Below, in pieces: positions 2,326 through 61,184 of a DNA stretch of 64,000 nucleotides. This DNA comes from a virus, in the IMG/VR virus record IMGVR_UViG_3300044957_000619. One strand, written 5' to 3'. Position 1 is the stretch's first letter. Each line of letters begins with the position of its first letter. The notes below the pieces were generated by a model. It did not search any database and was not told the origin of the DNA. It saw only the letters and a list, made by a program, of their open reading frames with translations. The translations under genes were made by a program, and so were the position numbers.

Positions 2326-2726
2326 GATTTCTTACCCCAATTCTTTGCACCTTTCTTTCTGCATGCAGCAAGTGCCAATGATCCGTATGCTGAAGGCCAC
2401 GTTCCGCCGTCTCGAGTATAACGAGCTTTTACTTTGTAGTAGCAAGCATCACGTTTTGCTTTCTTTTTTTCTTCGATTACACCTTCAGCCTTAGGAGTAC
2501 GTTTACCCATACCAACTCGTCGTTTTTGTGCAACTAAAGATTTTTTTTCTTTTTTATCAAACGAGCTCCATGTTTTTGGAGTATCTTTAGAAACTTTACG
2601 AGAAGGACGGCACTTTTTAACGCCTTTGGTTTTGTCATTGCCACAAGGCCGGCCATGTTGATCTGTCCATTTTTCTTTTACCCAACGGCGAAGATCTTCT
2701 GATAGTAAATCAACTAAACGTATCAT
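2322..2726 (-). CDS. basic conserved phage protein, possible internal head protein
   Basis: LRRWVKEKW...CG...KCRP and DACYYKVKARY..WPSAYGS motifs typical of T4-like phage proteins; N-terminal MIRLVDLLSE. Confidence 0.6.
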   Translation of the reverse strand: MIRLVDLLSEDLRRWVKEKWTDQHGRPCGNDKTKGVKKCRPSRKVSKDTPKTWSSFDKKEKKSLVAQKRRVGMGKRTPKAEGVIEEKKKAKRDACYYKVKARYTRDGGTWPSAYGSLALAACRKKGAKNWGKKS

Positions 2727-3058
2727 CGTCCTTTTTCCTCGCGGATAATTAATTCGCCCAACACTTCTAATCGACCAACTTCTCTTTGAAATTCAATTTG
2801 AGACATTGATGATGAAATCCTTTTATATGTTTCGTCAAATTCGCGTTTAGCTTTATCTAAATCAAATTTCCCAGCAGCTGCTCTTTTATAATAAGGAAGT
2901 TTAACTTTGAAATGATGCCAAGTTAATAAAGCTAATCCACCTTTTTCATGAGCAGTTGTTGCAATCTTCTCTGCACCAGCCTCGCGGGTATCTGCAAATG
3001 ATTCAAAAGTATCTTTCTTTTTTTCTTTTGATTCGAAAAGTAAATTTATTAGTTTCAT
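2723..3058 (-). CDS. hypothetical protein, possible internal head protein
   Basis: starts MKLINLLFE directly after the ATATTTATT motif. Confidence 0.6.
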   Translation of the reverse strand: MKLINLLFESKEKKKDTFESFADTREAGAEKIATTAHEKGGLALLTWHHFKVKLPYYKRAAAGKFDLDKAKREFDETYKRISSSMSQIEFQREVGRLEVLGELIIREEKGR

Positions 3059-3069
3059 ATTAATAAATA

Positions 3070-3732
3070 TTACAACGTAGGAATTAATTTGTATGATTTA
3101 CAACCAAATAATAGCATAGCTCTAAAATCAGCTTGTTGAAATGCATCTAATGAATGTTTTGGTAATCGATTAAATCGTTTAGTAACAGATATTATTTCAT
3201 CCCAATTGGTATATTGTAATACTGTTTCTACGTAGTCAACATCAACTAACATATCTCGCACATTAGGATAATCCCACTCAATATGTACTATAGGCATGAT
3301 GCGATCTTCATTTATATAATCAATGCATAAATCTAGTCCGCATTTAAAACTGGTACTAAGTATGCGAAATAGTTCAGGACGTTGTGTTGCATAACGTTTT
3401 ACTTGTTCTGCAGCTTCTCCGGTCAGTGGATATCTAAAAACAAACTGACTATGATCTAAAATTAATTCCGATGTACCACTTTGTGTTAGCCATGGTTGAA
3501 TAATTGCATGAGCACCTTTGGCAGCATCTCCATCTTTATACCATGTTGTATCGTGTTCTAATGAAATATCATTATGTGCATAATATGCTTGTTCAATTTC
3601 ATTTAAATCAAACCCTTCATGATCTACATGACACGTATAATTTAATAATACGCGTTCTGCAACATCTTCTGGTAATGGTTTTGAAATTTGAATATCCAAA
3701 TAGATAGGTTTTGATACGTTATAACTTAACAT
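3070..3732 (-). CDS. conserved hypothetical phage protein
   Basis: 220 aa ORF in the operon. Confidence 0.6.
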   Translation of the reverse strand: MLSYNVSKPIYLDIQISKPLPEDVAERVLLNYTCHVDHEGFDLNEIEQAYYAHNDISLEHDTTWYKDGDAAKGAHAIIQPWLTQSGTSELILDHSQFVFRYPLTGEAAEQVKRYATQRPELFRILSTSFKCGLDLCIDYINEDRIMPIVHIEWDYPNVRDMLVDVDYVETVLQYTNWDEIISVTKRFNRLPKHSLDAFQQADFRAMLLFGCKSYKLIPTL

Positions 3733-4130
3733 TACATCATGTTTTTTATTATGTTAGCAAAATTTGTTTTTGAATTGTTAAAATCTGAATCTGCATCATC
3801 AAATAATTTAGTTTCAAAAGAATTCTTTGATTTTTTGATTAAACAAACTGTTGCATCGAATTGTTCTAAGCCATTAAGTAAATATACAATTCCAAAGTAT
3901 GCATAGTTATCACAAACTTTAGCAACAAATTCTGCTTTTGAAAATATCAATTTCATTGTGCCTAAATCTTCTATAGGTGCACTAAATACGTGTTCTTTAC
4001 GTTTCAATCCTAAATATGAAAATTTAGGAGACGTTTTCATTTGTTTTGCAAATTCTTCGAAAAACGGTTTTGCTAATTGTTTTGGATCAACAACATTTGC
4101 TTCAGTCAATATGTTTTTTAGTTTCATCAT
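3732..4130 (-). CDS. hypothetical protein, possible internal head protein
   Basis: N-terminal MMKLKNILTE leader. Confidence 0.55.
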   Translation of the reverse strand: MMKLKNILTEANVVDPKQLAKPFFEEFAKQMKTSPKFSYLGLKRKEHVFSAPIEDLGTMKLIFSKAEFVAKVCDNYAYFGIVYLLNGLEQFDATVCLIKKSKNSFETKLFDDADSDFNNSKTNFANIIKNMM

Positions 4131-4546: not shown

Positions 4547-5025
4547 TATTTTTTATGTTTTGAAATTTCTACTGCAGCAAGTTGTTTTAATGCTGCTCGT
4601 TTTGATTTTGGTCGTTTAGATAATCGGCGTCCCGATTTAGTAGTAGCAAAATATCCAGCTTCCGTTTTTTCAATGCGCTCTGGCATCATTTGTTTGAGCT
4701 GATCTTTAAAGTCAGCTGGAATGAATTGTGGTCGTGATGTATTTCCACCAAAGCCTGACACTTCTTGTGTTTCGTCATGAAGCGCATTCATTAAAAAATC
4801 ACCTACTTCTTGAATATCATCCTTGGATGTAGCAATATGATCGGCTGCCCAATCATGTCCATTGCTCAATATGCGTTGAACGTGACGCGGATCCATTTGC
4901 AACATGGCATCTACATATTTTTTAATTGTTTTTAGATTGCCAAAAAACATGTAGTTTGCATTTTTATCACCACAAACTCCGGTAGTTCCCCCACAACCAC
5001 AACTGCATTCGTTGAGTCGTTTCAT
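4546..5025 (-). CDS. conserved hypothetical phage protein
   Basis: MKRLNECSCGC...NYMFFGNL...HDWAADHI; basic C-terminus. Confidence 0.6.
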   Translation of the reverse strand: MKRLNECSCGCGGTTGVCGDKNANYMFFGNLKTIKKYVDAMLQMDPRHVQRILSNGHDWAADHIATSKDDIQEVGDFLMNALHDETQEVSGFGGNTSRPQFIPADFKDQLKQMMPERIEKTEAGYFATTKSGRRLSKRPKSKRAALKQLAAVEISKHKK

Positions 5026-5026
5026 A

Positions 5027-5197
5027 TTAAGCCTTTGCTAATACCGACCAAACAGTTCCGGTTAAAGTAATAACGCCGCCAATGATTTCCGTAGCAGTAG
5101 TTTCATCAATAAGTCCTTTGGTTACTAAAATACCCCCAACAAATGTTAAGGTGTGTCGAAGAATGCCGAGCAATTGTTCTCGTGTTAAACGTTTCAT
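5027..5197 (-). CDS. small two-TM membrane protein, putative holin (not in ORF track)
   Basis: manual translation MKRLTREQLLGILRHTLTFVGGILVTKGLIDETTATEIIGGVITLTGTVWSVLAKA*; AAGGAA and the late motif upstream. Confidence 0.7.
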   Translation of the reverse strand: MKRLTREQLLGILRHTLTFVGGILVTKGLIDETTATEIIGGVITLTGTVWSVLAKA

Positions 5198-5232
5198 TGT
5201 TTTCCTTTTTTATATAAATATATGTTATTAGA

Positions 5233-6258
5233 TTATATTGCAGTCCAACCTGCGGGGTCTGATTCTTTAAAAACATAAAGTACTCCCGCAGCATCATCCC
5301 AATATATTGAACCTGCAACAGCTTGGTCTGGTCGATCGTTTGGTAATACAAACTTACCAGTAAATCCAACGCCACCAAGTCCGGCTAAGTTTATTATGCC
5401 ATTTTTATCTGCAGTTAGATTTGTATTGTCATCAAGTTGTCCGGAAAATCCAATACTAGATCCGGATATAAATGTTGATCCGGTTACTAATAATGCGGTT
5501 TGATTGAAAGCAGTGCCTATTCTTAACGACCCTGATACTGCTAATGAACCGGTAACACCCATTGACCCGGTAACTTGTGCACTACCCGTAAATGGAAATC
5601 CAACACCGGATCCACCTCCCGCATTAAGAGCAAATGATGCCGTTACTGCGTATGATGAACTCAATGCCGACAAGGCATAACTTGCCGTTACGGGAACATT
5701 TCCAGCATAAGAAGCACTTAATGCAGTTGTAGCATATGATGCTGTTCCTAATAAAGAGCCTGTTATTGATGATGCGTTAACAGAACCAGTAACATATAAC
5801 TCATTTGTTACTTTTAAACTACCTGATATACCTACATTTGCCCAAGTACTTGAATCAATTGACATCCAGCCGTTGTTAACTAATCCCGTACTAAGGCCGC
5901 CAATAAAGCTAATACGTTTATTAGCTCCTCCAGTATCAGTTAACTGCAATATACTAGAATCTCCGTTGCCTATTAACAGGTATTGATCAATATTTGTAAA
6001 CTGAATTGAAGCTGTTGCGTTTGAATCGTTTTCTGTAAATACAATTTTTGAAGTACCGCTGTTATTAGTTAAAGCAATATTGTTATCTACTGTAATTACG
6101 GGCCCTGTTAATGCACCAACTAACGATCCCGTAAATGATCCGGTTGCAACGACTGTCGTTGTTGTGCTAGTACCATCCAATGCATCTATGATATTTGTTA
6201 TGTGTGTGGGTTGTATAGTACTTCCACCCGTAATACCTGTTCTACTTATTGTTCCCAT
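5233..6258 (-). CDS. tail fibre-like virion protein rich in TGS/SGS/TAS
   Basis: Gly/Ser/Thr-rich with repeated TGS and TASYA motifs; C-terminal GSIYWD...LYV fibre-type motif. Confidence 0.65.
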   Translation of the reverse strand: MGTISRTGITGGSTIQPTHITNIIDALDGTSTTTTVVATGSFTGSLVGALTGPVITVDNNIALTNNSGTSKIVFTENDSNATASIQFTNIDQYLLIGNGDSSILQLTDTGGANKRISFIGGLSTGLVNNGWMSIDSSTWANVGISGSLKVTNELYVTGSVNASSITGSLLGTASYATTALSASYAGNVPVTASYALSALSSSYAVTASFALNAGGGSGVGFPFTGSAQVTGSMGVTGSLAVSGSLRIGTAFNQTALLVTGSTFISGSSIGFSGQLDDNTNLTADKNGIINLAGLGGVGFTGKFVLPNDRPDQAVAGSIYWDDAAGVLYVFKESDPAGWTAI

Positions 6259-23667: not shown

Positions 23668-23696
23668 ATTATATGAAATCATTTAATTAAATCCAA
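23668..23696 (-). promoter_or_regulatory. class A promoter TTGGAT-N17-TATAAT
   Basis: exact 17 nt spacer; ATG 5 nt downstream. Confidence 0.75.
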
Positions 23697-23888
23697 TTGT
23701 TCTTTCATATAAATTTCTATTAAATCTTTGGTTTTTTGCAAGTCTTGTTCAAACGAACCTTTGTGACGGCATCTTACAATGCGTTTGATGATGTCGAATT
23801 CATATGCGTTAAGTTTAAAATCTTCTGCAAACTTATAAAGTGAATAAGGACCTTGATAGTGTTTTTGTGTGTTTATGTTATTTTCCAT
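23679..23888 (-). CDS. DUF3310 (SaV-like) protein
   Basis: HY...IIKRIVRCRHKG...DLQK. Confidence 0.65.
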   Translation of the reverse strand: MENNINTQKHYQGPYSLYKFAEDFKLNAYEFDIIKRIVRCRHKGSFEQDLQKTKDLIEIYMKEQLDLIK

Positions 23889-24621
23889 ATTTTTTAACTG
23901 TTTTCATTTTTTCAATTGATTCTTGTTTATGTTTTTTTCCGTACATTGGATTTTTATCCCCATCATATAAACCTATTTTTGCAAACCGTTGTTTTTGTTT
24001 AGTGACATCTGATACAGGTTTATCGTATCGAGGATTGTCGGTTGGTTTATTATATCTTCCACGAACCCAGCCAGCTGGTATTGGTTCTAATATATGATGT
24101 TTTTTTGATATAACCCCATTTTTAATCCAAATGTATTCTTTACATTTTTCGGATGGCGATTTACCGGATTGTATACGACCTCTTTGCCACCCAACTGGTA
24201 TATCCGTTTTATCATATACTTTTTTATTTAATATGCCATTTGTTATCCAAAAACTGCCAGCAAACGGAGAACCATTTTGTTTAATATAATTTCGTTGACG
24301 TTCTAATTGTATTTTTGAGTTTAACTCTCTAATTATTTGATATTCATTACTACTAACGTGGTAAGTTCTTGTTTGAGTATTACTTTGTACTTTATTTAAC
24401 ATCATCCAAAATGCTTTAATAATGCCATGATGATTGGGATAAATTTTCCAAAGCAATTTATGAGCTATATAATGTTCTCGAGCAGTTAAATCAACTAAAT
24501 TATCTAGGTCTTCGGTGCCACCCATACATTTAGGGACAACATGATGTCGTTCATGATACCCTTGCAATGTTCTGGTACGAGCTCGATTGATAAGTTGATT
24601 GTATATTTTTTGATAATTCAT
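23878..24621 (-). CDS. free-standing HNH homing endonuclease with NUMOD3-type tail
   Basis: MNYQKIYNQL, HHVVPKCMGG, LTAREHYIAH, NPMYGKKH. Confidence 0.85.
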   Translation of the reverse strand: MNYQKIYNQLINRARTRTLQGYHERHHVVPKCMGGTEDLDNLVDLTAREHYIAHKLLWKIYPNHHGIIKAFWMMLNKVQSNTQTRTYHVSSNEYQIIRELNSKIQLERQRNYIKQNGSPFAGSFWITNGILNKKVYDKTDIPVGWQRGRIQSGKSPSEKCKEYIWIKNGVISKKHHILEPIPAGWVRGRYNKPTDNPRYDKPVSDVTKQKQRFAKIGLYDGDKNPMYGKKHKQESIEKMKTVKKYGK

Positions 24622-24626
24622 AATAG

Positions 24627-24713
24627 TAAAAACCATGCATCTTTTGAGGTCGGAGGCTCTACTCGATACATGGTCTTGTTAAATTATTTTACAATGTAGC
24701 TCCGACCCTACAT
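24627..24713 (-). ncRNA. candidate structured leader RNA: two hairpins with complementary loops
   Basis: minus strand ATGTAG-GGTCGGAG-CTACAT and ACCATGTATC-GAGTA-GAG-CCTCCGAC-CTC-AAAA-GATGCATGGT-TTTT; loops pair over 7 bp (GTCGGAG/CTCCGAC). Confidence 0.6.
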
Positions 24714-24730
24714 ATATAAATATATCACGC

Positions 24731-25180
24731 TCACTTGATTCCTTTTAACATACGTTTTTTCTCTGCTTCGCTATATCCGTACATGGTTATGATACGTTCC
24801 AATGCAACTTTATCCATTAAATCTGCATAATCTCCAGCTTCGGCACGACTAATTTGATAATGTTCTGCAAGTTGTGTGATTAAATCTTTATCGAACTTAT
24901 CTTCAGACTTTCCTTTGATATATTTTGCAAAGCTTTTATTGGTTGGCAGTAATTCATAGTACAATCGATATGTTTCTTGTGGCCGTAATAATCCAATTGT
25001 ATATGTTTGCAATTCATTGACTAACTCAGTTAGTTCCATTCGCATCGATAACCAACGATTAACAATAAACGGAGAAAATTTTTTTTGATCTGTTTCAGAC
25101 CATTTTTTCCATTCTCGTTTTTTATCCGTTAATCCACTAATTAAATCAAAAATCGTTGCACCTTTCTTTTCTTCTGCCAT
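24731..25180 (-). CDS. clamp loader small subunit (T4 gp62-like)
   Basis: FSPFIVNRWLSM...LVNE.Q, KYIKGK; near the RFC large subunit. Confidence 0.7.
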   Translation of the reverse strand: MAEEKKGATIFDLISGLTDKKREWKKWSETDQKKFSPFIVNRWLSMRMELTELVNELQTYTIGLLRPQETYRLYYELLPTNKSFAKYIKGKSEDKFDKDLITQLAEHYQISRAEAGDYADLMDKVALERIITMYGYSEAEKKRMLKGIK

Positions 25181-25399: not shown

Positions 25400-25617
25400 T
25401 ATTTTTTAATTTTTATTGGTTGAAATTCTTCTGGAACACTTCCGCAGTCATCGCATCTAAATACTGGAATTGGCACCATAGTATCTTTATCGGCACCTGT
25501 TAAGAATTTAGATACTTTGTTAATTGCCATTACTTGACGAAAATACATTCCGTCACATTCATTGCATGTAATTGGTTGCATATCATTTGGACCAATATTA
25601 ACATTTAATTTACTCAT
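25399..25617 (-). CDS. small zinc-ribbon protein
   Basis: CNEC...CDDCG. Confidence 0.65.
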   Translation of the reverse strand: MSKLNVNIGPNDMQPITCNECDGMYFRQVMAINKVSKFLTGADKDTMVPIPVFRCDDCGSVPEEFQPIKIKK

Positions 25618-26549
25618 AATTCTCCTAATAAATTTACAAACATTGCCATAATATTAATTTCCTGATCAACAACATGGGCTCCTTGATACTGTGCTTCTGC
25701 AATAATCAAAATGCATGGAGCAATATGACCATGAGCAAACTCATCTAAGTTATCATAAAGAAATGTATACAATGGCGTAAAATCTTTTACTTTGCTATCT
25801 GCAATCGTTTGCCGTATTTTGTTAAATGCAGCTTTTGTATCTTTAGCATTTTTTAAAACTTCCAATACTTCCGTCATGTAATTTGCTTGTATTGCAGAAG
25901 CTTTATCTAATTGCAACGTGTCATTAACGACTGATGCTTGTGCTGCATTGATTGCTCGACGAATATCTGGATAAGATGCATTAATAATTGCTGCAACATC
26001 CTTGATATCATAACTAACACCTTTTTCATCTAATACTGCAACTAATCGTTTTGCTACATCTGATTTACTTGGTGGCGTAATAGCAAATGTTTGACAACGC
26101 GATTGGATTGGATCAATAATCTTTTCAACATAGTTACATGTTAAAATAAAACGAGTTGTTTTGCTATATGTTTCCATTAGATTGCGAAGAGCAGCTTGTG
26201 CATTTGGTGTTAAATAATCTGCTTCATCTAAAATAATGATTTTCCAACGGCGAAATCCAACTGTAGATGCATAACGCTTAATCTTATCTCGTACTGCATC
26301 TACTGAGTTTTCATCTGATGCATTGATATACATTAAATCCGCATCTACGCTGTTTGCAATTATTTTCGCCAACGTTGTTTTGCCTGTTCCAGATGATCCA
26401 TAAAATAATAGATGCGGAACATCACCATTTGCGATAAAAATCTTAACTTTTTCAATAATGTGTTCATTGCCAATATATCCTTCTAATGTATCTGGACGGA
26501 ACGATTCAGTCCAGAGACTATTTTCAATTTCATTAATATTTTTAAACAT
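25614..26549 (-). CDS. clamp loader AAA+ subunit (RFC/T4 gp44-like)
   Basis: GSSGTGKT, INASD, LDEAD, SRC motifs. Confidence 0.92.
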   Translation of the reverse strand: MFKNINEIENSLWTESFRPDTLEGYIGNEHIIEKVKIFIANGDVPHLLFYGSSGTGKTTLAKIIANSVDADLMYINASDENSVDAVRDKIKRYASTVGFRRWKIIILDEADYLTPNAQAALRNLMETYSKTTRFILTCNYVEKIIDPIQSRCQTFAITPPSKSDVAKRLVAVLDEKGVSYDIKDVAAIINASYPDIRRAINAAQASVVNDTLQLDKASAIQANYMTEVLEVLKNAKDTKAAFNKIRQTIADSKVKDFTPLYTFLYDNLDEFAHGHIAPCILIIAEAQYQGAHVVDQEINIMAMFVNLLGEL

Positions 26550-26820: not shown

Positions 26821-26849
26821 ATTATATTAATTTTTATATAAAATTCCAA
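26821..26849 (-). promoter_or_regulatory. class A promoter TTGGAA-N17-TATAAT
   Basis: exact 17 nt spacer; ATG 5 nt downstream. Confidence 0.75.
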
Positions 26850-27478
26850 TTTAAGTATCTATCATTCTTACATCTATTAGACACAGTTTCAGCACATATA
26901 TTATAAAATCTAGCTGCTGATTGTAATGATTTGAATATTATTCCATTAATACATACTTGTTTTGCATTTTTAGATGCAGGATTGCCTTTATAATTATTAT
27001 GTCGTTCTTTAAACTTACCTTTAAAATTACCATGAGATTGGCCCGAATTAAAAAAAATACCATCATGTATATTTTTTAACTTTGTTTCTTCTGCCCGATT
27101 ATGTATTTCTAGATTTGCTCCTGGATTTTGATCACCCGAATAGCCTAATTTATGTTTTATTTTTTCATATAAAATGTCTCCTTTTTTATATGTTAAACCA
27201 CCATTGCCGCCTTGTGTCATATTATAACCATTTTTATATGTATCTAATTTAGATATCCAAAATCGTTCTCGTTCATTTATATCATCGGTTTCATTTAATG
27301 TTTCTAAAATAATCCATTCAAATTCGGAATTTAATCTTAAAGATTGATGAAAATTTGTATCTGATAACAGTCGTAATGCCGAATCATAATGACCATTCTT
27401 ACGTTCTTCTAAAGTTTTTGTCGTCTTCCCAACATACATTTTATCATTATCTTTATTTTTAGCACAATATATTATCAT
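26834..27478 (-). CDS. GIY-YIG homing endonuclease (Seg-like)
   Basis: IIYC...MYVGKT, R...H, ERFWI, GYNMT.GG; NUMOD1-like C-terminus. Confidence 0.85.
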   Translation of the reverse strand: MIIYCAKNKDNDKMYVGKTTKTLEERKNGHYDSALRLLSDTNFHQSLRLNSEFEWIILETLNETDDINERERFWISKLDTYKNGYNMTQGGNGGLTYKKGDILYEKIKHKLGYSGDQNPGANLEIHNRAEETKLKNIHDGIFFNSGQSHGNFKGKFKERHNNYKGNPASKNAKQVCINGIIFKSLQSAARFYNICAETVSNRCKNDRYLNWNFI

Positions 27479-27530
27479 AATGACCTTTTTATATAAATAT
27501 AGACCGGTCTGAATTTTGGTCTGAATCTTT

Positions 27531-39171: not shown

Positions 39172-39374
39172 GTTTTTACACCTTTTTCGTGACGAGGCTC
39201 ATAAGGACAATGTCGACAACCATTACCACAACATGCCCCTCGGCGTACGTGATATGATTCAGTCATTACGCGACATCCATCGGAATCATAATAAAAGTCC
39301 GTTGGAAGGAGCTTGCTTCCAAACTCCCTCACGAACTGTTGTTGTATCCAATCTTTTCCTGCCGGCTGTATCAT
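39159..39374 (-). CDS. DUF5522-like Cys-rich protein
   Basis: RGACCGNGCRHCPY. Confidence 0.7.
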   Translation of the reverse strand: MIQPAGKDWIQQQFVREFGSKLLPTDFYYDSDGCRVMTESYHVRRGACCGNGCRHCPYEPRHEKGVKTLKM

Positions 39375-41230
39375 TATTTTATCTCACAAGCTCCGCCTGC
39401 ACAAGCTAATTCTCCGGATAAATCTGTGTTATCGTCCAATTCAACAACTTGTGTCAAGTCAATATTTGTTAATGATTGCAACATAACTTCGTATTGATCT
39501 TTACTAATATCTTCAAATGGTGCTTGAGTATATGTTCCTCCATCATATGGTAATACTGATAATCCGTTATAATGATCTCTATTCGTCCACATCCATTCTC
39601 CTGCTAATTCCCATTCATCTGCTTTAAGTGAAACTGTTGCAGATACATTATGTGTATTATTTCCGGATCTATGTCCTGGTTTTACCCATTCCAAATGTAC
39701 TCGTTTAATTCGATCCAATAATGCAAATGGCGATTCGGTACGAAGAATTGCTCCTTCTGGTGCTTTTTGTGGAATTGAAATAACTGCAGTATCGTGTGGA
39801 CGAAAATATTCATCTTCTACCAATTCTGGATGATTAGTTGCTAAATATGCATAGATGGCTTCATTTTTACCAACTCGGATTCTTCTCATATAGTAATCAT
39901 TATGCCAAGCATGAATGCCAGATGATGTTCCCAATGCTAAAGACGTTGTTCCTGCGGGTTTAACTGTTGTAGTACGAGCTGATTTGTTAATACCAATCAT
40001 TTCTGCTACTCGTTGATTTTCTTCTTTAACTGCCTTAGCAGCTGCTTTCATATCATATCCTAATACGACGCCAGAACCGATACCCGTCATTGATACTCCA
40101 ATAAGTGCATCTTTCTCAGTTGTGCGTTTCCATACTGTACGAAGATAATGAAAATCTGTATATCCTGCTTGAAGTGTTCCAATGAATGCTGCAGCACGTA
40201 CTCGTGCCATTAAAACTTCTTGTGATTCAATATCCGATGCATTTACTTCACATAGATTACAAAATTGAAATGGTCGAAGTGCAATTTCACAACATGGGTT
40301 AGTTCCCCAATCTTTGTCATTGCTCAAATAAATTCCAGGCTCTCCTGCATTTGATAATTCAACTCGTTTCCACAAATCCATGAAAAACTCTTTAGTAACT
40401 TTGTGACGAATTAATACTGCAGAATTATTTGCTCGGCCTCGTTGTGGATTCGTTTCCCACCAGTTACCTGATTTAGATGCAATCATTTCTTCATCATCTG
40501 CCGAAAACAAAGATATCAAAGCTGCTCTGCGAATTCCACCTGCTAATACTGCATCTGCAACGTGACATACCATATCATGAGTTTCAATTGGAGAAAGTTT
40601 ATCGCCATCTTCTTTGGCATCTAAAATACCTTGCAATTTGATCAAACATTCCTTTAATGGTTGAGGTCCTGGAGCTTTTCCTCCTGATGTAACCAATCTT
40701 GCACCTTTAGCTCTAATATCAGAAAAATCAAATGTATATGATGTTCCGCCTTCAAAATAAGATTTAACTAAAACTTTTACCGCATCTGCCCACCCTTCAA
40801 TTGAATCTGCAATTAGATATCTACGCGTACGTTTTGTGTTTGGTTTACGTATTTCTGGCAACGCTTCGACGTGATGTTTCTGTACAGAATATCCAACACC
40901 AGTACCGCCTAGCAATAAAAACATTGTTTCGCCAAATGCTCTCCAATCATCTATAGGAAGATATGCACAATTATAAATTCGGTTAGGAGAGATTTCAATT
41001 GGCTTACCACCAAATTGCAAACTACGCATTGATGGTAATATTTTTTTGTCATAAACGAATTGATATGCAGCTTCAATTTCTTCCCGTAATTTAGGATATT
41101 TTTTGATGTGCATATTCATGTTTCTTGTAACTAACTCTTCCCATGTTTCTCTGCGGTTAAGTTCGGGAAGATATTTCGCATATTTCATATGCACCGTAAT
41201 TTCACTTAAAATTTGATTTGAAATTTCCAT
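39374..41230 (-). CDS. nrdJ: class II (adenosylcobalamin-dependent) ribonucleotide reductase
   Basis: PSMR, YNCAY, GTNPCCEI, CNL, VKPAGT, C-terminal ACAGGACE. Confidence 0.9.
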   Translation of the reverse strand: MEISNQILSEITVHMKYAKYLPELNRRETWEELVTRNMNMHIKKYPKLREEIEAAYQFVYDKKILPSMRSLQFGGKPIEISPNRIYNCAYLPIDDWRAFGETMFLLLGGTGVGYSVQKHHVEALPEIRKPNTKRTRRYLIADSIEGWADAVKVLVKSYFEGGTSYTFDFSDIRAKGARLVTSGGKAPGPQPLKECLIKLQGILDAKEDGDKLSPIETHDMVCHVADAVLAGGIRRAALISLFSADDEEMIASKSGNWWETNPQRGRANNSAVLIRHKVTKEFFMDLWKRVELSNAGEPGIYLSNDKDWGTNPCCEIALRPFQFCNLCEVNASDIESQEVLMARVRAAAFIGTLQAGYTDFHYLRTVWKRTTEKDALIGVSMTGIGSGVVLGYDMKAAAKAVKEENQRVAEMIGINKSARTTTVKPAGTTSLALGTSSGIHAWHNDYYMRRIRVGKNEAIYAYLATNHPELVEDEYFRPHDTAVISIPQKAPEGAILRTESPFALLDRIKRVHLEWVKPGHRSGNNTHNVSATVSLKADEWELAGEWMWTNRDHYNGLSVLPYDGGTYTQAPFEDISKDQYEVMLQSLTNIDLTQVVELDDNTDLSGELACAGGACEIK

Positions 41231-41276: not shown

Positions 41277-41301
41277 AAAAAAGGAAGGAAAACTCCTTCC
41301 T
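41277..41301 (-). terminator. intrinsic terminator-like hairpin after the helicase
   Basis: AGGAAGGA-GTTT-TCCTTCCT followed by a T run. Confidence 0.65.
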
Positions 41302-41325
41302 ACGTTCTTTCATATAAATATCATT

Positions 41326-46177: not shown

Positions 46178-46867
46178 TTATAATTTATTTTTTGATTTTA
46201 TTGTGTTTTTAAATGATTCAATGCGTTTTCGTTTATGTTCTTCAGATTGTGGTCCAGTTTTGCGTCCAGTTAGTGTATTGCTAATTTTTTGTTTTATTTC
46301 ATCAGTTTTAGGTTTACCATAATTATGATTTTTTTGACCTTTGTGTGCATCACTCATTTTATTCTTTGTCTCCAACGGTAGTTGTTTACCTATCTGAGAA
46401 GCGCTTTTTTGTTTGCGGCGGTCTATAGACCAGGCTGAATTTAATTTTTGCTTAGTTTCGTTAGAATGTTGTTTACCCTTATTCCAAGCTGTCCGTCCTT
46501 TACTAGATTGACTAATTTTAAATTTAGTTTCATTTGAATGAGTAAATGATTTTCTTGATTCGCTAATTAATAGTTTAATACGCTCGTATTCTTGACTACT
46601 AACAGTATAATTGCGTTGCTGATTGTTACTCTGTGCCTTGTTAGACATCAGCCAATATGCATACAATAATTTGGAATTGTTTGGATAAATTTCACAAAGA
46701 AGTTTATGTGCTATGAAATGTTCCCGAGCTGTTAAATCAACTAAGTTTGATGCATCATCACTTCCGCCTACACAACGAGGAATAATATGATGCCTTTCTT
46801 TGTAACCTGTTAAGACTCTTGTTTTAGCTCGGTCGATTAGTTGATTGTAAATTTGTTCATAATTCAT
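46178..46867 (-). CDS. free-standing HNH homing endonuclease with NUMOD3 repeats
   Basis: MNYEQIYNQL, HHIIPRCVGG, LTAREHFIAH, HSNETK repeats. Confidence 0.85.
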   Translation of the reverse strand: MNYEQIYNQLIDRAKTRVLTGYKERHHIIPRCVGGSDDASNLVDLTAREHFIAHKLLCEIYPNNSKLLYAYWLMSNKAQSNNQQRNYTVSSQEYERIKLLISESRKSFTHSNETKFKISQSSKGRTAWNKGKQHSNETKQKLNSAWSIDRRKQKSASQIGKQLPLETKNKMSDAHKGQKNHNYGKPKTDEIKQKISNTLTGRKTGPQSEEHKRKRIESFKNTIKSKNKL

Positions 46868-46959
46868 TTAATTAGTTTCCTTAGTTAATTAATTATAATT
46901 TAATTAGTTATGTCGTTAATTCAAAGTTAATTGGTAAATTTCTTTTACATATATAAATA

Positions 46960-47346
46960 TCAGTTCCAAACGATTTTCTTGAAGAAAATCAAGTCAATTA
47001 CGCAGTATCCTGCATCATCTGTAAGGATAAAAGAATTTTGATATTTGGTCCAATCTAATCGATATGATTTGTCCAATACGCCGTTATTTACTACTCGAAT
47101 AACTTTATTAAGTGCATTAACGGTATACAAGGTATTGGTTTCTTTTTTGCGGTGAATGCTAATTGTATTCTGACCCCGTTGTGTTACTGCGACGGCATTG
47201 TATGTGCAATATAAATTATCGGTAGCTTCTGCATTGGCAAATACAAAGATTCGACGTTCTGGTATAGTATAGCTTTGTTGTATGTAATCTGATATTATGT
47301 TTAAATCTGACTTATGTGCAAATGTGCAAAGTAATTGTGTTTTCAT
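46960..47346 (-). CDS. conserved hypothetical phage protein
   Basis: QLLCTF...TYN...NTISIHRKKETNTLYTVNALN. Confidence 0.65.
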   Translation of the reverse strand: MKTQLLCTFAHKSDLNIISDYIQQSYTIPERRIFVFANAEATDNLYCTYNAVAVTQRGQNTISIHRKKETNTLYTVNALNKVIRVVNNGVLDKSYRLDWTKYQNSFILTDDAGYCVIDLIFFKKIVWN

Positions 47347-58572: not shown

Positions 58573-58581
58573 TATAAATAT
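58573..58581 (-). promoter_or_regulatory. class B motif ATATTTATA upstream of the tail tube gene
   Basis: sits between the terminator and the tube gene start. Confidence 0.7.
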
Positions 58582-61175: not shown

Positions 61176-61184
61176 TATAAATAT
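61176..61184 (-). promoter_or_regulatory. class B (late-type) motif ATATTTATA upstream of the sheath gene
   Basis: same motif in intergenic positions at 21, 3062, 5213, 7471, 9241, 22059, 24715, 27492, 41313, 46952, 57010 and 58573. Confidence 0.7.

Follow-up and report, generated by a model that had tools for sequence, protein, structure and literature searches.

A portable kissing-loop RNA leader ahead of homing endonuclease genes in uncultured phages

By comparative sequence analysis, the leader of an HNH homing endonuclease gene in an uncultured phage is a member of a large RNA family without an Rfam entry. The leader is comprised of two hairpins, P1 and P2, that are joined by a 7-bp helix between their loops, and on the covariation among relatives this loop-loop (kissing) pairing is proven. 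It lies in a window of 64 kb, by which we mean the whole stretch of DNA that was analysed. The leader may act in cis to throttle the expression of the endonuclease through termination combined with hindered initiation, a reading to which we assign a probability of about 0.5.

Judged by its sequence, the window is that of a distant, uncultured T4-like phage. All 80 of its 80 long open reading frames were on the minus strand, and its G+C content was 34%. The promoter motif, P1, the linker, P2 and the U-run occupy 24628-24723 of the minus strand, in an intergenic spacer of 109 bases between the gp62 stop codon and the HNH start. The features of the locus were as follows:

25614-26549, minus strand: clamp loader gene, at most 45% identical to any isolated phage.
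Between the clamp loader and the gp62-like gene region: two small open reading frames.
24731-25180, minus strand: gp62-like clamp-loader small subunit gene, the upstream flank (PF16790, phrog_225).
23889-24726, minus strand: inserted cassette of roughly 850 bp (promoter motif, leader and HNH gene), borders approximate.
24715-24723, minus strand: promoter-like motif ATATTTATA with core TATTTATA, one base upstream of P1.
24694-24713, minus strand: hairpin P1, a 6-bp stem and 8-nt loop, made up of AUGUAG (24713-24708), loop GGUCGGAG (24707-24700) and CUACAU (24699-24694), and supported by the MFE fold and by other subfamilies.
24700-24706, minus strand: loop-1 heptamer GUCGGAG, 5' half of the kissing helix, partner of 24649-24655.
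24675-24693, minus strand: single-stranded, A/U-rich linker of 19 nt.
24632-24674, minus strand: hairpin P2, with a 10-bp lower stem, internal loop GAGUA/AAAA, apical stem GAG/CUC and an 8-nt loop.
24674-24649, minus strand: 5' side and loop of P2, made up of ACCAUGUAUC (24674-24665), GAGUA, GAG (24659-24657) and loop CCUCCGAC (24656-24649).
24648-24632, minus strand: 3' side of P2, made up of CUC (24648-24646), AAAA and GAUGCAUGGU (24641-24632), the lower stem having one U-G pair.
24649-24655, minus strand: loop-2 heptamer CUCCGAC, 3' half of the kissing helix.
24628-24631, minus strand: U-run UUUU abutting the 3' end of P2, five U if the paired U24632 is included.
23878-24621, minus strand: free-standing, mob-type HNH homing endonuclease gene with a NUMOD3 motif (phrog_655, 2.6e-48; Pfam NUMOD3).
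23679-23888, minus strand: 69-aa gene, the downstream flank, its original start displaced according to the insertion-site comparison.
Also around the leader: PD-(D/E)XK exonuclease gene.

An earlier, sequence-only reading of this DNA had described two hairpins, an AU-rich linker, TTTT and an ATG 10 nt past the stem, with loops complementary over 7 bp. Each of these elements was confirmed base by base. The complementarity of GUCGGAG and CUCCGAC extends to 8 nt if C24648, of the closing pair, is included. The 8-mer GGTCGGAG was present at only two sites in the 64 kb, one per strand, and these are the two loops; the chance expectation was 0.2.

The U-run is separated from the AUG at 24621 by ACUAUU. 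This AUG is the likely HNH start because homologues begin at MNYQKIY; the open reading frame listing puts the start at 24636. No Shine-Dalgarno sequence was present ahead of the AUG. In contrast to the T4-type sequestration of the ribosome-binding site (RBS), neither a Shine-Dalgarno sequence nor the start codon is part of the hairpin, and the AUG lies 10 nt beyond the stem. The inner AUG at 24636 is in frame, within the 3' arm of P2 and 15 nt ahead of the likely start; it is shared by L001 and L415 (MVFTIM / MVLTIM) and absent in other relatives.

The MFE fold of the leader is exactly P1 plus P2, at -30 kcal/mol. The z-score of -2.6 is modest for a single sequence, and the evidential weight therefore rests on the relatives. 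The energy of P2 was -15 kcal/mol, with its apical part alone at +0.3 kcal/mol, that is, not stable by itself. The nearest-neighbour duplex energy of the 7-bp kissing helix was -10.7 kcal/mol, which is comparable to that of all of P2.

IMG/VR was scanned with two patterns in which the stems were specified and both loops were left as N. The window-type pattern identified 56 distinct leaders with 28 different loop pairs. In every one of these 56 leaders, positions 2-8 of the two loops formed a perfect 7-nt Watson-Crick complement, whereas non-cognate loop combinations mostly showed 2-4 nt of complementarity. On a MAFFT alignment of the 56 leaders, the kissing helix (columns 9-15 with columns 68-74) was Watson-Crick in 392 of 392 cells, with double changes at 7/7 pairs, and no G-U pairs or one-sided changes were found among the 392 cells. 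RNAalifold, which is unable to draw pseudoknots, picked the kissing helix unaided. In the same alignment, all ten pairs of the P2 lower stem covaried and many were U-G pairs, so that the structure belongs to the sense-strand RNA, as the sequence-only reading had supposed. No information comes here from the four inner pairs of P1 or from the apical stem of P2, which the pattern specified; P1 is supported by other subfamilies. The whole structure was 91% paired, as compared to 74% in shuffles and 29-39% with the partners slid. A covariance model built from the 56 relatives scored the window at 79.6 bits (E = 1e-12).

The second pattern yielded a second leader type, with about 40 real copies and at least 12 loop pairs, all complementary. 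Compensatory single swaps between near-identical leaders were observed twice, between copies 2 and 3 of L004 and between the window and L415. A structural scanner found that 23 of 769 terminator-like hairpins had an upstream hairpin with a loop complementary over at least 7 nt, in a locus set that included loci fetched with loop-fixed patterns; its reversed, complemented-only and same-sequence controls gave 0, 1 and 0, respectively. With relaxed thresholds, the scanner was no better than its controls. The search for covarying homologues, which had been put forward as a check on the structure, thus returned them in number, and a chance pair of hairpins is ruled out by the at least 28 covarying loop pairs. 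Two additional pairings were considered and rejected. An extended long-range helix beside the kissing helix (CUAC/GUAG), drawn by RNAalifold, involves columns fixed by the pattern and is absent in other subfamilies. An antiterminator pairing between UACAU in the 3' arm of P1 and AUGUA in the 5' arm of P2 is present in the window and is not conserved in relatives.

Loop-fixed patterns found the same architecture in unrelated small phages, with quite different P1 stems, P2 stems and internal loops. The sequence of the P1 stem is wholly different between subfamilies, at 4-14 bp, and the stem is always kept. Window-type leaders have linkers of 19-27 nt and the second type a linker of 14 nt, and each copy found by loop-fixed patterns ends in a U-run. 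In one small phage, a second copy was found by the first covariance model, with loops GUGGUAG and CUACCAC. L004 carries three leader copies within 6 kb, with loops CUGCAAC/GUUGCAG, CUGGUCC/GGACCAG and CUCGUCC/GGACGAG; leaders 2 and 3 are near-identical save for the one compensatory swap. A loose palindromic pattern gave mostly chance matches among those listed, and yielded L253, a 37.5-kb contig from a small phage. L253 has two paralogous leaders 950 nt apart at 3746-3846 and 4703-4794 (5099-5199 and 6056-6147 of L275), each with its own loop pair. Downstream of the first is an unknown 276-aa gene, and downstream of the second a 131-aa HNH gene that is followed by replication genes.

The sequence-only reading could not assign the element to a known family, and the Rfam search bore this out: nothing relevant was found in Rfam 15 at E up to 10 (window) or up to 1 (eight loci with relatives' leaders). 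No description of the kissing-loop leader was found by full-text search of the literature. GenBank phages gave no DNA match to the window locus or to a second-type leader, and the pattern scan of genome contigs returned only GC-rich chance matches, without structure.

The internal loop of P2 is kept in all subfamilies. Its likeness to a loop-E/sarcin-ricin motif (AGUA/GAA), which had been noted from the sequence, holds for part of the family and fails family-wide. The window has AGUA/AAA (AAAA), and 54/56 window-type relatives have GAAA. The AGUA was fixed by the search pattern. Other subfamilies carry UGAU/UGAU, UGC/AAA or a single bulge.

The comparison of insertion sites showed where the leader had entered the window. 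In about 55 IMG/VR T4-like contigs (gp62 72-95% identical), the gp62 stop codon overlaps the start of the 69-aa gene homologue, and neither the HNH gene nor the hairpins are present at this junction. The homology to these cassette-free contigs is lost immediately past AAGTGAGCGT and is regained at ATAAACACACAA; a new AUG (23888) for the displaced 69-aa gene comes from the 3' end of the HNH gene. By this comparison, the leader and HNH unit is an insertion. In a complete 159.6-kb relative GGTCGGAG was found nowhere, and the covariance model had no match in two complete T4-like relatives (159.6 kb and about 160 kb). One contig, L001, shares both the cassette and its insertion site. Between L001 and the window, identity is 93.5% in the leader, as opposed to 75% in the HNH open reading frame and 73% in gp62, which argues for selection on the leader. 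The two leaders show five differences over 88 aligned positions, with all of the P2 pairs and both heptamers kept. For the HNH gene, T-even mobD-like genes were found by tblastn.

Every one of the 11 copies of the motif ATATTTATA in the window is on the coding strand, and 9 of them fall in intergenic DNA, which represents 5.5% of the window. It lies ahead of the tail sheath, tail tube, GIY-YIG, second mob-type HNH and ribonucleotide reductase genes. This placement at the tail sheath and tail tube genes makes the earlier reading of a late promoter plausible, and ATATTTATA is a reasonable candidate late promoter. Read on the coding strand, its core TATTTATA corresponds to the T4 sequence TATAAATA in reverse complement. 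At the tail tube and tail sheath genes, the motif (58573-58581 and 61176-61184, minus strand) is 19-22 nt ahead of the gene, with a Shine-Dalgarno sequence between. In the relatives, TATTTATA or TATATTTG is present at a fixed distance upstream of P1, and many carry TATATTTG. A gap of 1 nt separates the motif from P1 in the window and in every window-type relative with TATTTATA; in the second type, it is about 10 nt. The Bacteroidota-type TAnnTTTG was not enriched in the intergenic DNA of the window, and a sigma-70 scan was uninformative (21 matches vs 28.5 expected).

In sister endonuclease genes, the AUG comes directly after this promoter motif, with no leader between them, which identifies the leader as an insert between promoter and start. 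One is the GIY-YIG gene at 26834-27500 (minus strand, phrog_314), with ATATTTATA 14 nt before its AUG. The second mob-type HNH gene (46178-46867, phrog_655) has the same promoter start, TGATATTTATATATGTA, in the region ahead of it (46868-46960, minus strand). After this promoter start comes a leader of about 85 nt, unstructured and AT-rich, with a Shine-Dalgarno sequence and no kissing hairpins, which could be a decayed or alternative leader. The window therefore holds three endonuclease cassettes with three different 5' arrangements. Ahead of the ribonucleotide reductase gene (39374-41230, minus strand), in the region 41277-41321, the motif at 41313-41321 is followed after 11 nt by a GC-rich hairpin, AGGAAGG/CCUUCCU (41301-41282, minus strand), with U5, about 45 nt before the AUG and with no kissing partner, a further case of a promoter-like motif succeeded by a terminator-like hairpin.

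The tie of the leader to an endonuclease gene, claimed for the HNH gene of the window, extends to the relatives. Approximately 86 of 88 distinct downstream proteins (~95%) were homing endonucleases by PHROG family counts. Pfam analysis of the 88 proteins gave GIY-YIG (29), NUMOD4 with HNH_3 (20), NUMOD3 (17) and NUMOD1 (14); in PHROGs, 40 belonged to a GIY-YIG family, 20 to an HNH family, 18 to the mob-type family of the window and 8 to an endonuclease VII-like family. At least four nuclease families, namely GIY-YIG, NUMOD4/HNH_3, mob-type HNH and endonuclease VII-like, thus follow the leader. The suggestion of an RNA partner of the nuclease is unlikely, since nucleases of at least four unrelated families share this leader. 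The orientation of the leader is always that of the downstream gene, whose AUG comes 2-10 nt after the hairpin and U-run, without a Shine-Dalgarno sequence.

In L004, one kind of leader serves both an HNH gene and GIY-YIG genes. The HNH gene at 3001-3627 and the GIY-YIG gene at 4553-5242 have the same leader and a near-identical C-terminal zinc-finger-like tail, CPxCxKxGGNS...WHFExC, and catalytic and DNA-binding parts both appear, from these sequences, to be shuffled as modules. Loop-fixed scans found the fold also ahead of non-nuclease genes that head replication modules in small phages, so the module is not exclusive to endonucleases. L341 has a second-type leader at approximately 2397-2446 (minus strand), and the gene about 90 nt downstream of it encodes a gp32-like single-strand-binding protein rather than an endonuclease; the nuclease gene may have been lost here and the leader left on its own.

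In our preferred reading, the leader restrains the gene that it precedes. Transcription would arrive both from the motif abutting P1 and from the upstream gp44-gp62 operon, and P1 would be the first element to fold. As the tip of P2 emerges, its 7-nt loop would pair with the P1 loop at about -11 kcal/mol and lock the leader in one compact fold, which would place a hairpin and U-run 10 nt ahead of an AUG that has no Shine-Dalgarno sequence. Many transcripts would end at the U-run, those that read through would carry a stable structure at the ribosome landing site, and the net outcome would be a low, insulated dose of nuclease. We infer the termination, the translational hindrance and the favouring of the OFF state by the kissing contact, as well as the premise that the nuclease is toxic. 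The 3' arm of P2 ends 10 nt before the AUG, in the region occupied by the ribosome, and P2 with its U-run resembles an intrinsic terminator; both fit a throttle. Since the apical part of P2 is unstable alone and the kissing pairing adds about -11 kcal/mol, P1 is favoured as a lock on P2.

Other points limit this reading or stand against it. P2 is followed by U4-5 in the window, by U6-U8 in most relatives and by a broken run in the closest subgroup, and a simple terminator scanner misses P2 because of the internal loop. In that closest subgroup (L415, L401, L359, L363 and L392) the U-run is degenerate, UUCUUACU or UUACUUACU, and the kissing pairing is still kept, so termination cannot be the whole function. 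If transcription begins here as it does at T4 late promoters, about 6 nt past the motif, the resulting transcripts would lack part of P1. A terminator at this position would also deprive the downstream phage genes of transcription, unless these are served by separate promoters. By gene content, related leaders stand ahead of genes that do not encode nucleases. Finally, the layout is of the guanidine-IV type, so the sign of the effect could be the opposite. The subgroup with the decayed U-run, which includes the compensatory swap in L415, and the read-through of guanidine-IV are what hold the throttle to about even odds.

The closest precedent in gene context is that of the T-even phages, which restrain homing endonuclease genes by leader hairpins, embedded late promoters and weak terminators (PMC2988022). 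These include hairpins at I-TevI/II/III, segB and Aeh1 mobE, terminators at mobE and segF, and a hairpin at seg43(25) (PMC2988022). As in the T-even leaders, a mobile or free-standing nuclease gene has its own late-type promoter and a stable hairpin just before the start codon, and in some of those cases an intrinsic terminator trims transcript levels. As in seg43(25), the hairpin leaves the start site uncovered. Unlike the T-even leaders, the leader described here has no RBS to sequester, is built of two hairpins joined by a covarying 7-bp helix, and is a portable module common to at least four nuclease families, with loops that differ from copy to copy.

The throttle has its most direct rival in a built-in antiterminator, which we consider unlikely while granting it the precedent of the guanidine-IV (mepA) riboswitch, where loop contact between an upstream hairpin and the hairpin of the terminator increases read-through (PMC7736828). 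In this alternative, a rigid kissing helix and a stretched linker would keep the basal pairs of P2 open, transcripts with P1 would pass the terminator, and the leader would be a ligand-free ON device. The layout of that ON switch is the same, in that an upstream loop kisses the loop of a terminator hairpin between the promoter and the regulated gene. The second-type linker of only 14 nt, set against roughly 32 helical steps to span by our geometry estimate, and the retention of the P2 internal loops in all subfamilies also speak for it. Guanidine-IV needs conserved loops and guanidine, whereas here the seven Watson-Crick pairs are free in sequence and nothing suggests a ligand pocket, with nuclease genes downstream, an unrelated context and no Rfam match. 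Against the antiterminator, a constitutive 7-bp kissing helix would make the terminator pointless without a modulator, and none was seen. The 19-nt linker of the window is long enough for a relaxed fold, and kissing complexes are often bent, so the argument from strain is weak. In the cobalamin riboswitch, the L5-L13 kissing loop likewise joins an upstream domain to the hairpin of the expression platform and decides its fate; the present RNA is much smaller, with no large aptamer and no ligand.

A temporal switch of the T4 type, in which late transcripts start inside the 5' arm of P1 and escape, gp44-gp62 read-through is silenced and the nuclease is made late, appears improbable. The 1-nt spacing between motif and P1, seen in the window and in each window-type relative of the TATTTATA kind, the short spacings from the motif to the Shine-Dalgarno sequence and AUG of tail genes, and the T4 paradigm of I-TevI/II/III, segB and Aeh1 mobE (PMC2988022) are in its favour. 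However, P1 of the second type begins about 10 nt after the motif and would be intact on those transcripts. A truncated transcript would retain the heptamer at its 5' end, able to pair with the loop of P2, and RBS sequestration, the core of the T4 mechanism, is absent.

The variability of the loops bears on whether the leader might act in trans. The frame of the kissing helix is nearly constant (G-U at one end, G at the other), and its 4-nt core is free. The kissing columns differ 2.7x more per site than other free columns (0.162 vs 0.061), as measured over 51 pairs of leaders whose other unconstrained columns are at least 90% identical; these pairs are not independent of one another. Cassettes that share a contig always have different loops; there were 14 same-type pairs, and the difference was not significant (p ~0.14, our estimate). 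The variability hints at selection for new specificities and, with the pairs being non-independent, is a lead only. That the loops are addresses, with the 4-nt core under diversifying selection and each leader RNA recognising only itself, is rather unlikely. If true, the terminated leader would be a trans-acting dose sensor, as a dimer or on nascent cognate leaders, and the family a set of orthogonal, one-strand kissing-loop regulators. Such address loops, like plasmid incompatibility RNAs, would decide nuclease timing in single or mixed infection.

We also give little credence to the alternative that a small RNA of about 85 nt, delimited by the promoter and the terminator, stands alone and acts in trans through its loops, by forming head-to-tail dimers or by binding the nascent leader of the same cassette. 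The resulting control would be address-specific and would depend on dose, as with the copy-control RNAs of plasmids and their incompatibility groups. The apparently complete promoter-to-terminator unit, the variable core in its constant G-U...G frame, the excess of changes in the kissing columns and the different loops of cassettes in one contig (subject to the same non-significance) are consistent with it. However, intramolecular pairing should win and both loops of the folded RNA are occupied, no second heptamer target was found in the genomes checked, and the non-independence of the sequence pairs applies here as well. In plasmid antisense control (pT181, pIP501, ColE1 RNA I/II and R1 CopA/CopT), pairing is with a separate countertranscript, made from the opposite strand. 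The leader resembles these RNAs in its fully paired 7-nt loop contacts, in having a putative terminator in the leader of a dose-sensitive gene and in the new specificities that loop changes bring, and differs from them in having both loops on one transcript, with no antisense promoter evident. The loops of phi29-type pRNA pair between molecules and form a ring on the packaging motor, and this RNA is present in one copy per genome, near the genome end. Both RNAs have two mutually complementary loops that covary between phages; unlike pRNA, the leader is tied to nuclease genes, and it has no Rfam match.

It is very unlikely that the leader is a stabiliser or processing site, in which the kissing-locked 5' fold would block 5'-end-dependent decay, or the coaxial stack would be a site for a double-strand-specific RNase, with the U-rich tract as a ribosome landing pad. 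P1 is at or near the predicted 5' end, the kissing pairing is kept where the U-run has decayed, and the AUG without a Shine-Dalgarno sequence is preceded by a U/A-rich stretch. However, the canonical hairpin with U6-U8 in most members would be superfluous for a stabiliser, and the sister endonuclease genes do without any leader. A DNA-level signal (a protein-binding inverted repeat or cruciform, the two heptamers being an inverted repeat in DNA) or chance hairpins are effectively refuted by the free-loop scan and the covariation counts, as G-U pairs work on the sense strand only and the orientation always follows the downstream gene, with the promoter motif before and the U-run after.

Homing endonuclease genes need enough expression to spread, and not so much as to harm the phage. 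To our knowledge, how they achieve this has been described largely in the T-even model phages. The leader, as a portable RNA module of roughly 90 nt in uncultured phages, placed ahead of at least four unrelated nuclease families and with unusually clean covariation of a tertiary contact, offers a testable mechanism for the dosing of a selfish gene. The window itself contributed a clean insertion site, the link between the promoter motif and tail genes, the subgroup with a decayed U-run and the rate comparison. With well over 100 members, the family is a candidate for a new Rfam family. It also represents a natural library of matched 7-bp kissing-loop pairs that could be of use in RNA engineering, and the leader is a marker of cassette borders in the annotation of metagenomic phages.
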